Source: Candidatus Moraniibacteriota bacterium
GTDB taxonomy: Bacteria > Patescibacteriota > Minisyncoccia > Moranbacterales > DUUL01
Length of the DNA: 64,000 nucleotides
Assembly: GCA_027008775.1 (NCBI GenBank)
Contig: JALVDV010000004.1
Location: 24,544-88,543 of the forward strand
Reading direction: 5' to 3'
The notes beneath the pieces were generated by a model that did no database searches, had not been told where the DNA came from, and saw nothing but the letters and a program-made list of their open reading frames with translations. Positions 825 through 22,325 of the stretch are shown piece by piece (position 1 is the stretch's first letter; each line of letters begins with the position of its first letter). Both the position numbers and the translations under genes were made by a program.

Positions 825-2561
825 ATGTCAAACAAAACACCAAAATTTGACCAGGCTCTGAAAGAAATTTTAGACAAACTGGAACCGCATCAGAGAGAAT
901 GCAAAGAGTGTGGTCAGAAGTTTGATATCTTGTCAGAAGATATTAAATTCTATAAAAGACTACAAGTCCCGCCACCGACTTTGTGTCCTGATTGTAGAGA
1001 ACAAAAAAGAGCTGGTTATAGAATAAATTATTTACCTATTTTCTATAAAAAATCTTGTTCCGTTCCCGGACATACTGAAAAAATTGTTTCTTTCTATGCC
1101 GAAAACAATCCGGTTAAAGTTTATGATGATAAATACTATTTTTCCGATCAATGGGAAGCCACTGAATTTGGCATTGACTACGATCCGGAGAAAAGTTTTT
1201 TTGAAGAATACAATAAATTTGTCCTAAAAGTTCCTCATCAATCTTTATTCAAGGATCCGCAGTCAGTTAATTCTGATTACGTAGTGGCGGGAATTCAAGC
1301 CAAAGATTGTTATTATGTAGCCTCCCCAATATTTTCAGAGAAAATATATTATGGTTGGTACCCAGAAAACTGTAAAGAATCCATTAATATTTGCGAAATC
1401 AAAAAAAGCGAATTATGTTTTGATTGTGTTTACACAAATGCCAGCTACAACTGTATTCATTGCGTTAGTGTTGATAATTGTTTAAATTCAAGTTTTCTTT
1501 ACGATTGTCACAATTGTCAAAATTGTTTTATGTCTGTCAATTTGAGAAATAAATCCTATGTTTTTCGCAACCAACAGCTAAGTAAAGAAGAATACCAAGA
1601 AAAAATGAAAGAAATTGAAATGGGAAAGAAAAGTGTTTATAAAAAATTACAAAAGGAATTTAATCAGTTGATTGAAGAAAAAGCAATTAAGAAGAATTTG
1701 GATAATGCCAAGACGGAAAATGTTTTTGGAGATAAATTAATTGAATGCAAAGATTGTTTTAAATCTTTTTCTCTTGTTAAATCAGAAAATATCAGGTATG
1801 GATTCGTAGCCAAAGAAATTAAAGATTGTATGGATTTTTGGGGAGGAACAAAAAATAGTCTGTTATATGAATCATCAGGAGTGGCCGATTCCAGTCAAGT
1901 AAAATTTTCTTTGATGATGAGAACTTGTTCAGAAGTAGAATATTCTTTTGAGTGTAGTAATTGCGAAAATTGTTTCGCCTGTTTTGGCTTAAAAAACAAA
2001 AAATATCATATCTTTAACAAACCCTATTCTAAAGAAGAGTATTACCAAAAAATAGATGAATTAAAAACGAAAATGTTGAAAAGAGGAGAATATGGAGAAT
2101 TTTTCCCTTTAAAAAATAGCCCTTTTCCTTATCAAGACTCTAACGCTCAGATAGAATTTCCTTTAACCGAAGAAGAAATAAAAGCTAAGGGTTGGCATTG
2201 GCAAGATGAAGTTCCTTCAGAAATTGATTTAACTAAAATTAAAACCATCAAAGCGGAAGATGTTCCCGATGATATCAAGGATATTACCGATGAAATACTA
2301 AAGACCCCGGTTATCTGTGCAAGAACCAAAAAACCATTTAAAGTAACTCCCTTTGAATTAGACTTTTATAGAAAAATGAGTGTTCCCTTACCAACTATTC
2401 ATCCCTCAGAAAGAGTAAAAGATTTGTTTAAATATAAAAGAGGCTATCATCTTTATTCAACAACTTGTACTAAATGCGGGAAGGAAATTCAGACGGTTCA
2501 TAATCCGGAAAAAACTGAGAATATTTATTGCGAGGAGTGTTACGCTAAAGAAGTGGTTTAG
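825..2561 (+). CDS. cysteine-rich protein P1 (578 aa, ~40 Cys). N- and C-terminal tandem zinc-ribbon-like modules and a twice-repeated central Cys-ladder module. Family not recognised.
   Basis: Long ORF. N-terminal 'CKECGQKFDILSEDIKFYKRLQVPPPTLCPDCREQKR...YKKSCS'. C-terminal '...FELDFYRKMSVPLPTIHP...CTKCGKEI...YCEECY'. Central '...NCFMSVNLRNKSYVFRNQQLSKEEY' and '...NCFACFGLKNKKYHIFNKPYSKEEY'. Clear paralog of the 3978..5747 ORF. Confidence 0.75.
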   Translation: MSNKTPKFDQALKEILDKLEPHQRECKECGQKFDILSEDIKFYKRLQVPPPTLCPDCREQKRAGYRINYLPIFYKKSCSVPGHTEKIVSFYAENNPVKVYDDKYYFSDQWEATEFGIDYDPEKSFFEEYNKFVLKVPHQSLFKDPQSVNSDYVVAGIQAKDCYYVASPIFSEKIYYGWYPENCKESINICEIKKSELCFDCVYTNASYNCIHCVSVDNCLNSSFLYDCHNCQNCFMSVNLRNKSYVFRNQQLSKEEYQEKMKEIEMGKKSVYKKLQKEFNQLIEEKAIKKNLDNAKTENVFGDKLIECKDCFKSFSLVKSENIRYGFVAKEIKDCMDFWGGTKNSLLYESSGVADSSQVKFSLMMRTCSEVEYSFECSNCENCFACFGLKNKKYHIFNKPYSKEEYYQKIDELKTKMLKRGEYGEFFPLKNSPFPYQDSNAQIEFPLTEEEIKAKGWHWQDEVPSEIDLTKIKTIKAEDVPDDIKDITDEILKTPVICARTKKPFKVTPFELDFYRKMSVPLPTIHPSERVKDLFKYKRGYHLYSTTCTKCGKEIQTVHNPEKTENIYCEECYAKEVV

Positions 2562-2683: not shown

Positions 2684-3859
2684 ATGCGGAAATTTTACAA
2701 AAGAGACATAGATGAAAGGGTTCATAGGGTCTTAAAAGGGTTTCCCGTTATTTTTATTACCGGGCCGAGACAATCCGGCAAGACTACTTATATTAAGCAT
2801 CGTTTTAAGAATTATGAATATTTTAATCTGGAATCTTTTTCTGATTTTGAGTACATCTCCAATGATCCCGAATATTTTTTAAAAGAACATCCTCATAATA
2901 TTATTATTGATGAAGTGCAGAGAATGCCTGAACTCTTATCTTATATCCAAGTTCATGTTGATAAAGAACAAAGAATGGGATCTATTATTTTGTCCGGTTC
3001 CCAAAATTTATTAATATCGGAAAAAGTTAATCAGTCTTTAGCTGGCAGAGTGGCTTACTTGACCCTTTTGCCTTTTAGTTTAAATGAACTTAAGAAGGGA
3101 AAGATAATAGAAAAAAGTTCTTGGAAACAAGCATTAAAAGGCTTTTATCCGGCTTTATATAGTCGTCAAATTCCCATTGATGAATTTTATAATTCTTATT
3201 TGACTAGCTTTGTAGAACGAGATGTGCGACTAATTAAAAATATTGGTGATTTAACGCGGTTTAAAAAGTTTATGATATTGTTAGCAGGCAGAGCCGGACA
3301 GATTATGAACATATCCTCTTTGGCTGATGATACTGGAATTTCTCCAAATACGGCCGAGTCATGGCTGAGTATTTTAGAAGCCAGTTATATTATTTTTCGC
3401 TTGGTTCCATATTTTAAGAATAGCAGTAAAAGATTAATTCGTTCACCCAAAATATTTTTTTACGATACGGGCTTACTTTGTTTTTTATTGGGAATTGATT
3501 CAATAAAAGAATTGGATTCTCATTTTGCGCGAGGAAATATTTTTGAAAATTTAATTATTGCCGATATTAAAAAAGATAAAGAAGTGTTTGATATCTCTTC
3601 TCAACTCTATTTTTATAGAGATTCTAAACACAAGGAAATTGATTTGGTGATTGATTTAGGTGGAGACTTTTTGTTAATGGAAATAAAATCGGCCAGTGAG
3701 TTTAGTCAATCATTTTTAAAAAATATTGTTGAAATACAGGAGCAAGAATTTAAAAAGGGGAGAAATATAATTGTCTATAATGGCCAGAGAAAATTGAAAT
3801 TAAAGAAAGCGGAGGTGGTGCCATGGGATAAACTAGATAACGCTATGTGGGTAAAATAG
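2684..3859 (+). CDS. AAA+ superfamily ATPase, COG1373-like (AAA_14 N-terminal domain plus DUF4143-like C-terminal domain)
   Basis: Walker A 'ITGPRQSGKTT', Walker B-like 'IIIDEVQ'. Overall architecture matches the standalone archaeal/bacterial COG1373 ATPases. Confidence 0.8.
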   Translation: MRKFYKRDIDERVHRVLKGFPVIFITGPRQSGKTTYIKHRFKNYEYFNLESFSDFEYISNDPEYFLKEHPHNIIIDEVQRMPELLSYIQVHVDKEQRMGSIILSGSQNLLISEKVNQSLAGRVAYLTLLPFSLNELKKGKIIEKSSWKQALKGFYPALYSRQIPIDEFYNSYLTSFVERDVRLIKNIGDLTRFKKFMILLAGRAGQIMNISSLADDTGISPNTAESWLSILEASYIIFRLVPYFKNSSKRLIRSPKIFFYDTGLLCFLLGIDSIKELDSHFARGNIFENLIIADIKKDKEVFDISSQLYFYRDSKHKEIDLVIDLGGDFLLMEIKSASEFSQSFLKNIVEIQEQEFKKGRNIIVYNGQRKLKLKKAEVVPWDKLDNAMWVK

Positions 3860-3977: not shown

Positions 3978-5747
3978 TTGAAAATTATGGGTCAAGATCA
4001 AAAATTAGAATCCAAAAAACTAGAAAAAAGAGTTTGTCAAAATTGTCAGAAAGAATTTACTATTGAGCCGGAGAATTTTGAGTTTTATGAAAAAATTAAA
4101 GTTCCAGCTCCGACCTGGTGTCCGGAGTGTCGCGGGCAAAGACGTATGAACTTCAACAACGTTAGCAGTCTCTACAAAAGAAAATGTGATTCTTGCGGGG
4201 AAAATATTATCGCCGTTTACCCGGAAGAAGTTGAATTTCCGGTTTATTGTCCAAAATGTTGGTGGTCGGACAAATGGGACGCCTCCGATTATGCTCGGGA
4301 CTATGACCTTAACAAACCGTTTTTTGAACAATTACGAGAGCTAAAAAATGAAGTGCCCCGAGTATCTCTGGAAGTTGATTATCAAAGAAATATTAACAGT
4401 CCTTATGCCAATCTCTGTGGTCCTTTAAAAAATTGTTATCTGACTTTTTTAACAGACACTGCTGAAGATTGTGCCTACATTTTTTCCGGTGATAATCTGA
4501 AAGATTGTTTTGATTGCACCAACGTGGCTTCGGCTGAGAATAGTTATGGTTTGTTCTATTCTGCCAAAATGTATCACTCATTTTTTTCGCGAGAGTGTGA
4601 AAATTGTTTGAATGTCTATTTCTGCAAAAATTTGAAAAATTGCCAAAACTGTTTCGGCTGTGTCAATCTCCGCAATAAATCCTATTGCATCTTTAACAAG
4701 CAATATTCCAAGGAAGACTATCAGAAACAACTCCAAGAATTACTGACCGGCTCACATCAAGCCCAAGAAACCATTAAACAAAAAGTTGAGGAATTTTTTC
4801 TGCGCTTCCCCAATAAATACATCCACGGAGAAAGCAATTTAAACGTTAGCGGTGATTATATTTATCACTGCAAAAATACACATAATTCCTACGGCATCAT
4901 TGAGGGTGAAAATGTAAAGTATTGCAAAATGTTGGAAATGGGACCAACCAAAGATTGTTACGATTACGACAGTTGGGGACAGAAAGCGGAAAAAGTTTAT
5001 GAAGCGGTGCATTGCGGGGACGGAATTAACAATATCAAATTCAGCAATGGCGCTTGGCAGTCTTACAATGTTGAATACTCCGACAACCCTTTATTTTCTC
5101 ACGATATTTTTGGCTGCGTTTTTACCAACAAAAAATCCTACTGCATCCTCAACAAACAATACTCCAAAGGAGAATACTTCCCAATGGTGGAAAAGATCAA
5201 AAAACATATGAATGAAATGCCTTACATTGACAAACAAGACCGAGTCTATAAATACGGAGAATTCTTTCCACCGGAACTGTCTCCTTTCGCTTACAACGAA
5301 ACCATCGCTCAAGAATACTTCCCTTTAACCAAAGAAGAAGCAAAAAAGAAAGGTTACAGATGGAAGGAAAGAGAAAAAAGAAACTATAACATAACTCTCA
5401 AAACAGAAGATATCCCTGATAATATTAAAGACGTAGATAATTCTATTCTCAAAGAGGTTATAGAATGCGCTACCAATAGTGAAGAAGAGAAAGCTAAAAA
5501 TAACTGTAGCGAAGCTTTTAAAATAATTCCTCAAGAATTAGAATTCTACAAAAAAATGAATCTTCCTCTTCCCAGATACTGTCCCAACTGTAGACATCAT
5601 CAAAGACTAAAAAACAGAAATCCTTTAAAACTCTACAAAAGAACTTGCATGAAAGAAGGTTGCAACAATACCTTTGAAACCACCTATGCTCCTAATAGAC
5701 CGGAGATAGTTTACTGCGAGGAGTGTTATAATCGGGAGGTGAATTAG
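3978..5747 (+). CDS. cysteine-rich protein P2 (589 aa), paralog of P1 with the same tripartite architecture
   Basis: N-terminal 'CQNCQKEFTIEPENFEFYEKIKVPAPTWCPECRGQRR...YKRKCDSCGENI...YCPKCWW'. C-terminal '...ELEFYKKMNLPLPRYCPNCRHHQR...YKRTCMKEGC...YCEECY'. Central repeats 'GCVNLRNKSYCIFNKQYSKEDY' and 'GCVFTNKKSYCILNKQYSKGEY'. Confidence 0.75.
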   Translation: MKIMGQDQKLESKKLEKRVCQNCQKEFTIEPENFEFYEKIKVPAPTWCPECRGQRRMNFNNVSSLYKRKCDSCGENIIAVYPEEVEFPVYCPKCWWSDKWDASDYARDYDLNKPFFEQLRELKNEVPRVSLEVDYQRNINSPYANLCGPLKNCYLTFLTDTAEDCAYIFSGDNLKDCFDCTNVASAENSYGLFYSAKMYHSFFSRECENCLNVYFCKNLKNCQNCFGCVNLRNKSYCIFNKQYSKEDYQKQLQELLTGSHQAQETIKQKVEEFFLRFPNKYIHGESNLNVSGDYIYHCKNTHNSYGIIEGENVKYCKMLEMGPTKDCYDYDSWGQKAEKVYEAVHCGDGINNIKFSNGAWQSYNVEYSDNPLFSHDIFGCVFTNKKSYCILNKQYSKGEYFPMVEKIKKHMNEMPYIDKQDRVYKYGEFFPPELSPFAYNETIAQEYFPLTKEEAKKKGYRWKEREKRNYNITLKTEDIPDNIKDVDNSILKEVIECATNSEEEKAKNNCSEAFKIIPQELEFYKKMNLPLPRYCPNCRHHQRLKNRNPLKLYKRTCMKEGCNNTFETTYAPNRPEIVYCEECYNREVN

Positions 5748-20603: not shown

Positions 20604-22325
20604 ATGGTAACTAAAAAAAATTGGTCTTATCCTGACCCGAAAACCACTGATCCGGTGGAGCATCGTATTCAAAGGTTCTGGGAAATATTGCCCGGCTTTT
20701 TGACTTGGTTAACTTTACTGGGGATGTTCTTTTTTGCCTGGTGGAAGCCGGTATGGGCGGCGGTTTTTATTATTTCTTATGATCTTTACTGGTTGTACAA
20801 GACGATTTATATTGCCAGTTATTCCATTATGTCTTACCGAAAGATGCGTCGCTGGGAAAAAATTGATTGGCTTCATCGTCTGAAGGCCATTTTCAAAGGG
20901 AAAAAAATATTGAAGGAGTTGGATGAAGAAATTGCCAGACTGGAGAAAAGGATTAAAGAGGCTCCTTTGTTTAGCAAGAAAAGACGAGAATTGAAACAGC
21001 AACTAGTAGAGAGAAAGAATTTTAGGAAAAGAGCGGAAAAAGATTTGCGTCATCGTGACAAATTTTTGGACTGGCGGAAGGTTTACCATGTTATTTTATT
21101 GCCCAATGCTATAGAGACAGCAGAAAATATTAGACCGGCCATTCAAGCGGTTTTAGATTCCAATTATCCGAAAGACAAAATAATTATTGTCTTGGCGATG
21201 GAAGAGAGGGAGCCGGAGGAGAAGCGGAAAAAGAAAGAGAGAATATTGAGGCGAGAATTTGGCGATAAATTTTTTGATTTTATTGTTACCGTTCATAAGG
21301 TGAAGGGTAAGGAAATGAAGTGTAAGGCCTCCAATACAACTTACGCTGCCAAAAAAATTAAGAAATATTTGGAGGAGAAAAATATTCCTTTGGAAAATGT
21401 TATCTTATCCAATCTTGATTGTGAGTCCAGAATTCACCCGCAGTACTTGGCGGCTTTGACTTACGCTTATGTGACAGAACCAAAACGTTTGCAATACGCT
21501 TACCAACCCTTGCCGATGTATCATAACAATCTTTGGGACACAATTGCACCGGTGCGAATAATTGTAACAGGATCGTCTTTTTGGCACATGGTGGAGGCAA
21601 TGCGTCCGGAGCATATGGTGACCTTCTCTTCGCACAGTGAACCATTTAAAACTATTGTTGATATCGGTTATTGGCCGGTTAATGTTATTTCCGAGGATTC
21701 TTTGGTATTTTGGAACGCCTATAATTATTTTGATGGTGATTATGAAGTGAAGCCGATTTATTTGCCGGTTTCCATGGATGCGGTTTTGGGTAATAATTAT
21801 TGGCACACCATTAAAAATCAATACAAGCAAAATCACCGCTGGGCTTACGGGATTGAAAATTTACCCTTGCTTTATCGGGCGATGCGCAAAAACAAAAAAA
21901 TTCCTTTTTGGACCAAGGTAAGACACCTTTTTACCATGTTGGAAGGTCATCATAGTTGGGCCACTTCTTCTTTTATTTTAGCTTTGCTGGGCTGGTTGCC
22001 GTTGATTTTGGGGGGCAACAAATTTAATGAATCAATTTTGGCGCACAACTTGCCTTTTGTTACTCGTTATTTGATGACGATTGCTTTAGTTGGCTTGTTT
22101 GTTTCTATGATTTTGAGTTTGTTTTTAATGCCGGCTAGACCAAGAGGACATTCTCGTAAAAAATATTTGGTGATGATTTTACAGTGGGTAATAGCGCCGA
22201 TTATTGCTCCTTTTTTAGGAGCGGCGCCGGCGGTACATGCTCAAACAAGGTTGATGTTGAAGCGTTATATGGGAGAGTTTTGGGTAACGGAAAAAATTAT
22301 CAAAAAACCGAAAAGCTCTAGATAG
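20604..22325 (+). CDS. processive family-2 glycosyltransferase (cellulose/chitin-synthase-like) with N- and C-terminal TM domains
   Basis: 'QNHRWAYG' = Q(x2)RW motif; GT-A-like central domain; TM helices on both sides. Confidence 0.6.
   Translation: MVTKKNWSYPDPKTTDPVEHRIQRFWEILPGFLTWLTLLGMFFFAWWKPVWAAVFIISYDLYWLYKTIYIASYSIMSYRKMRRWEKIDWLHRLKAIFKGKKILKELDEEIARLEKRIKEAPLFSKKRRELKQQLVERKNFRKRAEKDLRHRDKFLDWRKVYHVILLPNAIETAENIRPAIQAVLDSNYPKDKIIIVLAMEEREPEEKRKKKERILRREFGDKFFDFIVTVHKVKGKEMKCKASNTTYAAKKIKKYLEEKNIPLENVILSNLDCESRIHPQYLAALTYAYVTEPKRLQYAYQPLPMYHNNLWDTIAPVRIIVTGSSFWHMVEAMRPEHMVTFSSHSEPFKTIVDIGYWPVNVISEDSLVFWNAYNYFDGDYEVKPIYLPVSMDAVLGNNYWHTIKNQYKQNHRWAYGIENLPLLYRAMRKNKKIPFWTKVRHLFTMLEGHHSWATSSFILALLGWLPLILGGNKFNESILAHNLPFVTRYLMTIALVGLFVSMILSLFLMPARPRGHSRKKYLVMILQWVIAPIIAPFLGAAPAVHAQTRLMLKRYMGEFWVTEKIIKKPKSSR

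Follow-up and report, generated by a model that had tools for sequence, protein, structure and literature searches.

The window analyzed here, a stretch of 64,000 nucleotides from a Candidatus Moraniibacteriota bacterium (assembly GCA_027008775.1, contig JALVDV010000004.1, positions 24,544 to 88,543 of the forward strand), encodes near its start two cysteine-rich proteins, P1 and P2, and raises the question of what the regularly spaced cysteines in the middle of these proteins build and what holds that structure together. Each protein contains two homologous domains of ~110 residues, made of ~8 turns of 12 residues with four three-residue sides. There is strong support for the prediction that each of these modules is a very thin β-solenoid of the type of the Tenebrio antifreeze protein, and this was judged, overall, to be the best explanation of the modules and a probable one. 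The two genes and their modules are located as follows, with the basis of each assignment in brackets.

825–2561, forward strand: P1 gene, 578 aa (open reading frame, ORF)
1272–1610, forward strand: P1 predicted solenoid module A, aa 150–262 (12-residue register, AlphaFold2 (AF2) module model, Foldseek)
1611–1718, forward strand: P1 basic helical linker between the modules, aa 263–298 (AF2 helix 269–286)
1719–2057, forward strand: P1 predicted solenoid module B, aa 299–411 (Smith–Waterman, hhalign, Cys phase)
3978–5747, forward strand: P2 gene, 589 aa counted from a TTG start (ORF)
4398–4736, forward strand: P2 predicted solenoid module A, aa 141–253 (alignment to P1 module A, Cys phase)
4842–5192, forward strand: P2 predicted solenoid module B, aa 289–405 (Smith–Waterman against P2 module A, module alignment A2)

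Internal Duplication and the 12-Residue Repeat

P1 and P2 share 35% identity along their entire length (E = 5e-101) and are hence paralogs, with P2 beginning 1.4 kb downstream of P1. The original prediction held that a cysteine-ladder module of ~30 residues occurs twice in each of them. The duplication was confirmed in both proteins: the first and second modules aligned by Smith–Waterman with z = 18 over 109 residues in P1 and z = 14 in P2, P2 module A and P1 module B aligned with z = 24, and none of 300 shuffles reached these scores. Similarly, when the profiles of modules A and B from 236 family members were compared with hhalign, a probability of 99.9% and an E value of 4.6e-36 were obtained over 109 gapless columns. 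The proposed length had to be revised, since the real unit measures ~110 residues and the 30-residue string is only its conserved C-terminal cap (consensus FGCxNLRNKxYCIFNKQYSKEEY), the best-conserved part of the module. The five strings originally quoted were all found, in P1 at aa 233–260 (nt 1521–1604), 382–409 (nt 1968–2051) and 198–234 (nt 1416–1526), and in P2 at aa 227–251 (nt 4656–4730) and 379–403 (nt 5112–5186); the interval 1280–2010 proposed for them lies entirely within P1 and stops short of the end of the second P1 motif, at 2051. In P1 module A, ~8 turns of 12 residues (aa 150–245) are followed by the cap YVFRNQQLSKEEY, after which a helix starts. The cysteine ladder of P2 module B is mostly replaced by Ser, Gly, Leu or Ile, and small insertions are present. 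All modules are mildly acidic, with a net charge of −1 to −3 each, and the linker between the two modules of P1 has a mean net charge of +3.5 and is the most variable segment of the protein. Pairing of the modules appears to be the rule: among the best 150 of 3,599 cluster representatives, none has fewer than two matched stretches, and 139 have exactly two.

The repeat is strictly 12 residues long (4 × 3), with ~8 turns per module, and each third position is occupied by Cys, Ser or a small aliphatic residue. The family consensus of the repeat is C-[YF]-x-[SCV]-x-[ND]-[CLV]-x-N-[SC]-[KE]-[ND]. Across the 236 homologs, the autocorrelation of Cys and of Cys+Ser frequency showed peaks at all multiples of 3 and negative values elsewhere, with the maximum at lags 3 and 12 in module A and at lag 12 in module B; the units of 8–10 residues of the form [ND]-C-x-x-[ND/S]-C that had been described for these proteins are accordingly better read as a period of 3 nested in 12. 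Family-wide, module A carries 11.4 Cys on 33 in-phase positions and 0.2 on the other 64, and module B carries 7.4–8.0 Cys in phase and 0.2–0.4 out of phase. The same holds for the individual modules: in P1, module A has 10 of its 11 Cys in phase (P = 3.9e-4) and module B all 8 (P = 4.6e-4), and in P2 module A all 12 Cys are in phase (P = 5.6e-6). The sole out-of-phase Cys in the modules of P1 is Cys190 (window 1392–1394), which is specific to P1: only 4% of homologs have Cys at this position, where Leu, Asn or Phe is usual.

Fold of the Module

The AF2 model of module A, built with the A2 alignment, reached a predicted local distance difference test (pLDDT) value of 84.8 and a predicted template modeling score (pTM) of 0.79, with core 10-residue blocks at 89–97. 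The model is all-β and forms a regular solenoid, its strands starting at model residues 5, 15, 26, 38, 49, 61, 73 and 85, i.e., at a spacing of 10–12 residues. When this model was compared with the PDB by Foldseek, the top 50 matches were all β-solenoids, among them the pentapeptide-repeat proteins AlbG (E = 9.8e-4), MfpA and Qnr, the luminal domains of SV2, TBCC, CAP, tailspikes and autotransporters. A profile made from 32 stacked modules (alignment A2) was also searched against 177,635 PDB sequences at E values up to 10, and the sole entry returned was 1EZG, the antifreeze protein of Tenebrio molitor (TmAFP), over 61 gapless columns. The register of this match was exact, with the Cys of 1EZG on coil positions 1 and 7 and its Ser and Ala on positions 4 and 10. 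The structure of 1EZG has this geometry, a coil of 12 residues whose four inward positions follow each other at intervals of three, in the motif TCTxSxxCxxAx. The comparison with insect antifreeze β-helices that had been drawn from the spacing of the cysteines was thus upheld by the period of 12, the inward residue at every third position, the register of 1EZG, the all-β model and the solenoid matches.

Several results weigh against this assignment. The TM-scores of the Foldseek matches were just 0.13–0.31 and no solved structure fits the geometry, although low scores within the right fold class are expected if the coil of the module is smaller than those of the matched solenoids. The likeness to TmAFP is statistically non-significant (E = 0.2), and the Pfam antifreeze model PF02420 gave a match in only 1 of the 32 modules (E = 3.8). 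Additionally, the full-length AF2 model of P1 (pLDDT 84.6, pTM 0.88) gives the modules pLDDT values of 65–75 and almost no DSSP strands; a Foldseek search of this model against the PDB returned nothing below an E value of 2.5, so that the solenoid matches come from the isolated module only.

Role of the Ladder Cysteines

The patterns of residue exchange suggest that the cysteine ladder is a matter of steric packing by reduced thiols, which would form neither a metal chain nor disulfides. Among 48 and then 236 homologs, Cys was found to exchange with Ser, Val, Ile, Leu or Thr at ladder positions 186, 201, 207, 210, 213, 216, 237, 308, 380 and 383, and in module B of the P2 subfamily, P2 included, most of the ladder Cys are replaced, with a typical last-turn pattern of C-S-L-C-C. 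The partners that Cys would meet across the coil are Pro, Val or Leu (pairs 162/168, 186/192, 198/204 and 234/240). Because most of the ladder Cys swap with Ser, Val, Ile or Leu and face aliphatic residues, they are best read as interior packing residues of a core that would be so narrow that its inward positions accept no residues other than Cys, Ser, Ala, Gly and small aliphatics. No signal peptide or membrane segment was found in P1 or P2, in agreement with the cytoplasmic location predicted at the outset, and this, together with the Pro, Val and Leu partners, makes disulfides unlikely. The earlier preference for metal coordination over disulfides therefore stands as regards the disulfides and is not supported for the ladder as a whole, given the exchanges of Cys, the loss in module B of the P2 subfamily and the lack of a compensatory pattern of ligands. 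Conservation of individual cysteines was likewise found in part, at C231 and C234 (99%), while at most of the ladder positions Ser, Val, Ile or Leu can stand in for Cys.

The conservation of C231 and C234 is in fact higher than packing alone needs, and the same can be said of C228, which never varies in the P1 subfamily and is mostly Leu in the P2 subfamily, and of positions 246 and 395, which alternate between Cys, His and Tyr. These are the observations on which a multi-metal array would rest, with CxxC knuckles holding zinc or CxxCxxC motifs holding an iron–sulfur cluster. P1 and P2 are cytoplasmic proteins with 5–6% Cys, CxxCxxC(xxC) motifs occur at 228–237 and 377–386, Cys exchanges with His at 246 and 395, and 96% of sequences keep at least four Cys or His among six last-turn positions of module A. 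Nevertheless, such an array was considered unlikely: most of the ladder positions tolerate Ser, Val, Ile or Leu, the motif is gone from module B of the P2 subfamily, fewer than four Cys or His are left in the last turns of module B in 80 of the 236 sequences, position 246 has Tyr as often as Cys, and AF2 builds a regular β-solenoid without any metal. A column-shuffle test gave 9 ligand-deficient sequences for module A against 14.7 expected, a marginal result, and was negative for module B; the ligand counts, with their variance as expected, showed no compensation beyond that of independent columns. A more modest variant, in which a single structural zinc or iron site in the last turn of module A (C219, C228, C231, C234 and C237) caps an otherwise metal-free solenoid, has a somewhat better claim and is held to be possible, if still doubtful. 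These five, with C219 at 87% and C237 at 79%, all lie within the final one or two turns of module A and are the only near-invariant ladder Cys across both subfamilies, and position 237 is always Cys where 228 is Leu, as 228 is Cys where 237 is Ser or Gly. This reciprocity, however, tracks subfamily membership and may for that reason reflect a single historical event, the shuffle test was only marginal, and the equivalent turn of module B is dispensable. A solenoid stapled by disulfides, as in the beetle antifreeze protein, is very improbable. In its favor are the 12-residue period and the inward register, which are the same as in TmAFP, but the pairs across the coil are Cys–Pro, Cys–Val or Cys–Leu and not Cys–Cys, and there is no signal peptide. 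Patescibacteria are mostly anaerobes with a reducing cytoplasm, and such a cytoplasm also speaks against disulfides here.

Conserved Faces and Possible Packing of the Modules

The sides of the coil are not equally conserved. Coil positions 10–3 are conserved, with an entropy of 0.7–1.9 bits, and form a face strand [SC]-[KE]-[ND]-C-[YF]-x that displays alternating Lys and Glu, a ladder of Asn or Asp and a ladder of Tyr or Phe; positions 5, 6, 8 and 9, on the opposite face, are variable, with 2.2–2.9 bits. An interface is suggested because a solvent-exposed aromatic ladder is so conserved, and the simplest candidate for a partner would be the other module of the same protein. The conserved aromatic faces of the two modules may thus pack together, taking the place of the disulfides of the insect protein, and packing of module against module would explain why the domain always comes in twos. 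The rigid body so formed might then present the variable faces and set the spacing between the two pairs of zinc fingers described below.

Terminal Zinc Fingers

The modules are embedded in an architecture that is common to P1 and P2: finger pair, solenoid A, basic helix, solenoid B, acidic linker and finger pair. The finger regions lie at the following positions.

882–1124, forward strand: P1 N-terminal zinc-finger region, aa 20–100 (PF13451, E = 0.0015, aa 25–63)
2310–2558, forward strand: P1 C-terminal zinc-finger pair, aa 496–578 (PF23477, TIGR04272)
4029–4262, forward strand: P2 N-terminal zinc-finger pair, aa 18–95 (PF13451, E = 0.014; zf_Tbcl and CxxC-x17-CxxC)
5430–5729, forward strand: P2 C-terminal zinc-finger pair, aa 485–584 (internal match to the N-terminal pair)

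The N-terminal region of P1 holds a zf_Tbcl-type finger (CxxC...CPxC) followed by a degenerate second finger; C26, C54 and C57 are invariant among the homologs, and C29 and C78 are present in 98%. The C-terminal pair consists of a degenerate zf_Tbcl finger and a CxxC-x17-CxxC finger whose cysteines C548, C551, C569 and C572 are invariant. The C-terminus of P1 scored 28.7 bits with PF23477 (zf_Tbcl_2), above the cut-off of 27, and 36 of 48 homologs also matched this model; with TIGR04272 it scored 26.8 bits, under the cut-off of 36. The inner fingers of P1 have lost cysteines. Both terminal regions are basic, with a net charge of about +5 each (mean +5.3 for the N-terminal fingers of P1). The models zf_Tbcl (PF13451), zf_Tbcl_2 (PF23477) and TIGR04272 match the ends of P1 and P2 only. 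A LIM match was set aside, as it overlaps with the C-terminal finger, and matches to bS21m, FlhDC and Hsp33 were regarded as noise. The CxxC-x17-CxxC domain of small proteins from M. mazei was found to bind zinc by inductively coupled plasma mass spectrometry (PMC12704099).

The two finger pairs of one protein are also homologous to each other, as seen in P2, where aa 485–584 match aa 1–95 with an E value of 8e-12, and likewise in P1. The proteins therefore bear the marks of two separate internal duplications arranged in mirror order: fingers, solenoid, solenoid, fingers.

Size and Distribution of the Family

Homologs of P1 (n = 1,902, nearly all of ~578 aa) come from Patescibacteria without exception, and P2 has at least 8,000 homologs; almost all relatives of either protein are 560–600 aa long, and every named source is a member of the Patescibacteria. 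At 50% identity, the family comprises at least 3,599 clusters and is restricted to this phylum. A scan of the GTDB species genomes found at least 490 relatives, nearly all in Paceibacteria-type lineages; the few metagenome-assembled genomes labelled otherwise that carry relatives may be mis-binned. No Pfam or NCBIfam model was found to cover aa 100–495, a region that includes both modules, and searches of PDB, Pfam and NCBIfam with the full protein sequences gave real matches to the terminal zinc fingers only. Literature searches on the domain, on TrwB-type ATPases with zinc in the candidate phyla radiation (CPR) and on bacterial 12-residue helices brought up no description of the P1/P2 family. 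The module represents a domain family not described before, whose predicted fold is of a known type but unusually minimal, and the proteins that carry it, very abundant in these bacteria, are among the larger Patescibacteria-specific families, yet have no Pfam or NCBIfam entry.

Paralog Arrays, Linked ATPases and Possible Function

In other genomes, family members occur in tandem co-directional arrays, with 5–8 copies in loci L001, L003, L005, L006, L008 and L009, and adjacent family genes overlap by 4 nt in L008 (1–14966). The largest array has up to 11 paralogs in a locus of ~20 kb (21 kb), in genomes of roughly 1 Mb. The expansion of the arrays appears to be old, since paralogs within one genome are only 32–60% identical. 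A soluble ATPase with matches to TrwB_AAD_bind, TraG-D_C and DUF87 was found within 10 kb of the family gene in 23 of 79 species-level loci, and in 12 of the 36 loci of at least 18 kb. Of 34 such genes, 33 lie on the same strand as the nearest family gene, often 12–150 nt away. Two ATPase subtypes recur, often bracketing one to seven family genes; the order ATPase, P1-type gene, ATPase was seen in L014, L049, L082 and L087, and in L040 seven paralogs lie between subtypes 2 and 1. The bracketing ATPases match TrwB_AAD_bind, TraG-D_C and T4SS-DNA_transf and lack a membrane segment at the N-terminus. The CxxC-x17-CxxC finger of the family is also present in one subtype, a feature seen in two ATPases.

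The first 2 kb of L001 and L009, two unrelated genomes, hold a gene with Sigma70_r4 and HARE-HTH domains and then a gene of ~470 aa, which precede the arrays of paralogs and ATPases; for the ~470-aa gene, Pfam gave a match to DUF8128 in L009 and none in L001. CutA1 genes were seen repeatedly within the arrays, in L001 and L005, and genes of the toxin–antitoxin or defence type (AbiEii, Fic, zeta toxin, PIN and NYN) are interspersed in arrays.

In a survey of 2025, 5,713 homologs of VirD4-like type IV coupling proteins (T4CPs) were counted in 2,918 genomes of Patescibacteria, only 148 of them near virB4, and an exaptation of these homologs was proposed (PMC12102498); the same paper does not mention the zinc-finger/solenoid family (‘zinc’ has 0 occurrences). 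The orphan homologs of that survey share their domain type with the ATPases that bracket the arrays, and the latter may be the very T4CPs reported. The linkage would turn the question of the orphan ATPases into a testable one on a defined partner protein.

As to what the proteins do, it is tentatively suggested, with low confidence, that the paired solenoids are a rigid spacer holding basic pairs of zinc fingers for a nucleic acid or a partner, and that they work with the VirD4/TrwB-like ATPases. A P1- or P2-type protein might bind nucleic acid or the ATPases through its fingers, as an adaptor, a substrate or a regulator. Two results count against a partnership of this kind, namely that 56 of the 79 loci have no TrwB-like ATPase within 10 kb and that no such ATPase was found when it was searched for in the window. 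A broader proposal, less likely again, is that the double solenoid, as a form of the thinnest known β-helix not described before, free of disulfides and metal and stabilized by the pairing of its two copies, is the signature component of an unrecognized Patescibacteria-specific system in which 1–11 diverged paralogs are handled by an exapted pair of soluble VirD4-like ATPases. If so, the paralogs, with their conserved core and variable face, could be interchangeable modules for substrate or target recognition in the trafficking of DNA or protein between epibiont and host, and the presence of about two orphan T4CP genes per genome would be explained. It was also considered whether the two solenoids could be a mimic of DNA, in the manner of the pentapeptide-repeat proteins MfpA, Qnr and AlbG, directed at an enzyme that handles DNA, for instance one of the neighboring ATPases. 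These three proteins head the list of Foldseek matches, the modules carry a mildly acidic charge and the family is linked to ATPases of the DNA-translocase type, all of which would suit a mimic. Yet the TM-scores with these proteins are 0.2–0.3, the pentapeptide period is absent, and a coil of 12 residues as against 20 is far thinner than DNA; with a net charge per module of just −1 to −3, so thin and weakly charged a coil makes mimicry a weak rival, and quite improbable.

Surroundings of P1 and P2 in the Window

The gene between P1 and P2 is the following.

2684–3859, forward strand: AAA_14/DUF4143 ATPase gene (Pfam match)

This ATPase was ruled out as a functional partner, and its gene looks like an unrelated insertion, because only 1 of 79 other loci has it next to a family member. 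A third paralog of P1 and P2 was searched for in the window and not found. An ORF of 573 aa at 20604–22325 (forward strand), close to P1 and P2 in length, has no Pfam match and proved by tblastn not to be a paralog. The mechanical ORF of P2 opens at the TTG at 3978, and the public copy of the protein, P0121 (586 aa), starts three codons later, at the ATG at 3987. Housekeeping genes of the window include the 3′ end of tyrS, valS, a gatA-type amidase gene and holA. Over positions 1–64000, 31 of the 32 two-kb bins show a positive GC skew (up to +0.40), irrespective of gene orientation, and the G+C content is only 32–44%, as would fit one replication arm of a small genome rich in AT.

Comparison with Known Solenoids

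Among solenoids of known structure, the model of the module falls in the class of the pentapeptide-repeat proteins AlbG (2XT2), MfpA (2BM6) and Qnr, which gave the best Foldseek E values (9.8e-4 to 3e-2), and of the right-handed β-helices TBCC (5CYA) and CAP (2B0R). The likeness ends with the class: the coils of these proteins have 20 or ~18 residues as against 12 in the modules, and superposition gave TM-scores of 0.13–0.31 at a root-mean-square deviation of ~10 Å. No signature of pentapeptide repeats (tandem A(D/N)LXX units, 20 residues per coil) was found in the modules, where the real period is 3 and 12 and not 5, Pfam gave no Pentapeptide match and the TM-score was 0.24; a weak Pfam match to TBCC was seen in 2 of 48 family members.

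The closest counterpart is TmAFP (YL-1, PDB 1EZG, PF02420), which shares with the modules the coil of 12 residues and the inward residue at every third position; its Cys2, Ser5, Cys8 and Ala11 align with the four inward positions of the module over 61 gapless residues. Most known examples of a 12-residue β-helix are beetle antifreeze proteins, in which it is held by disulfides. TmAFP has one Cys2–Cys8 disulfide per coil, whereas the modules have no Cys–Cys pairs across the coil. Similarly, the Thr-Cys-Thr face with which TmAFP binds ice has no equivalent in the modules, which lack the TCT motif and are most variable at the corresponding coil positions 6–8. A cytoplasmic bacterial 12-residue helix without disulfides would show another way to stabilize a minimal solenoid and would offer protein designers a new scaffold. 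Unlike the insect protein, which is secreted, P1 and P2 are cytoplasmic bacterial proteins without a signal peptide, and in them the solenoid is present as two copies inside a zinc-finger protein (578 aa in the case of P1).

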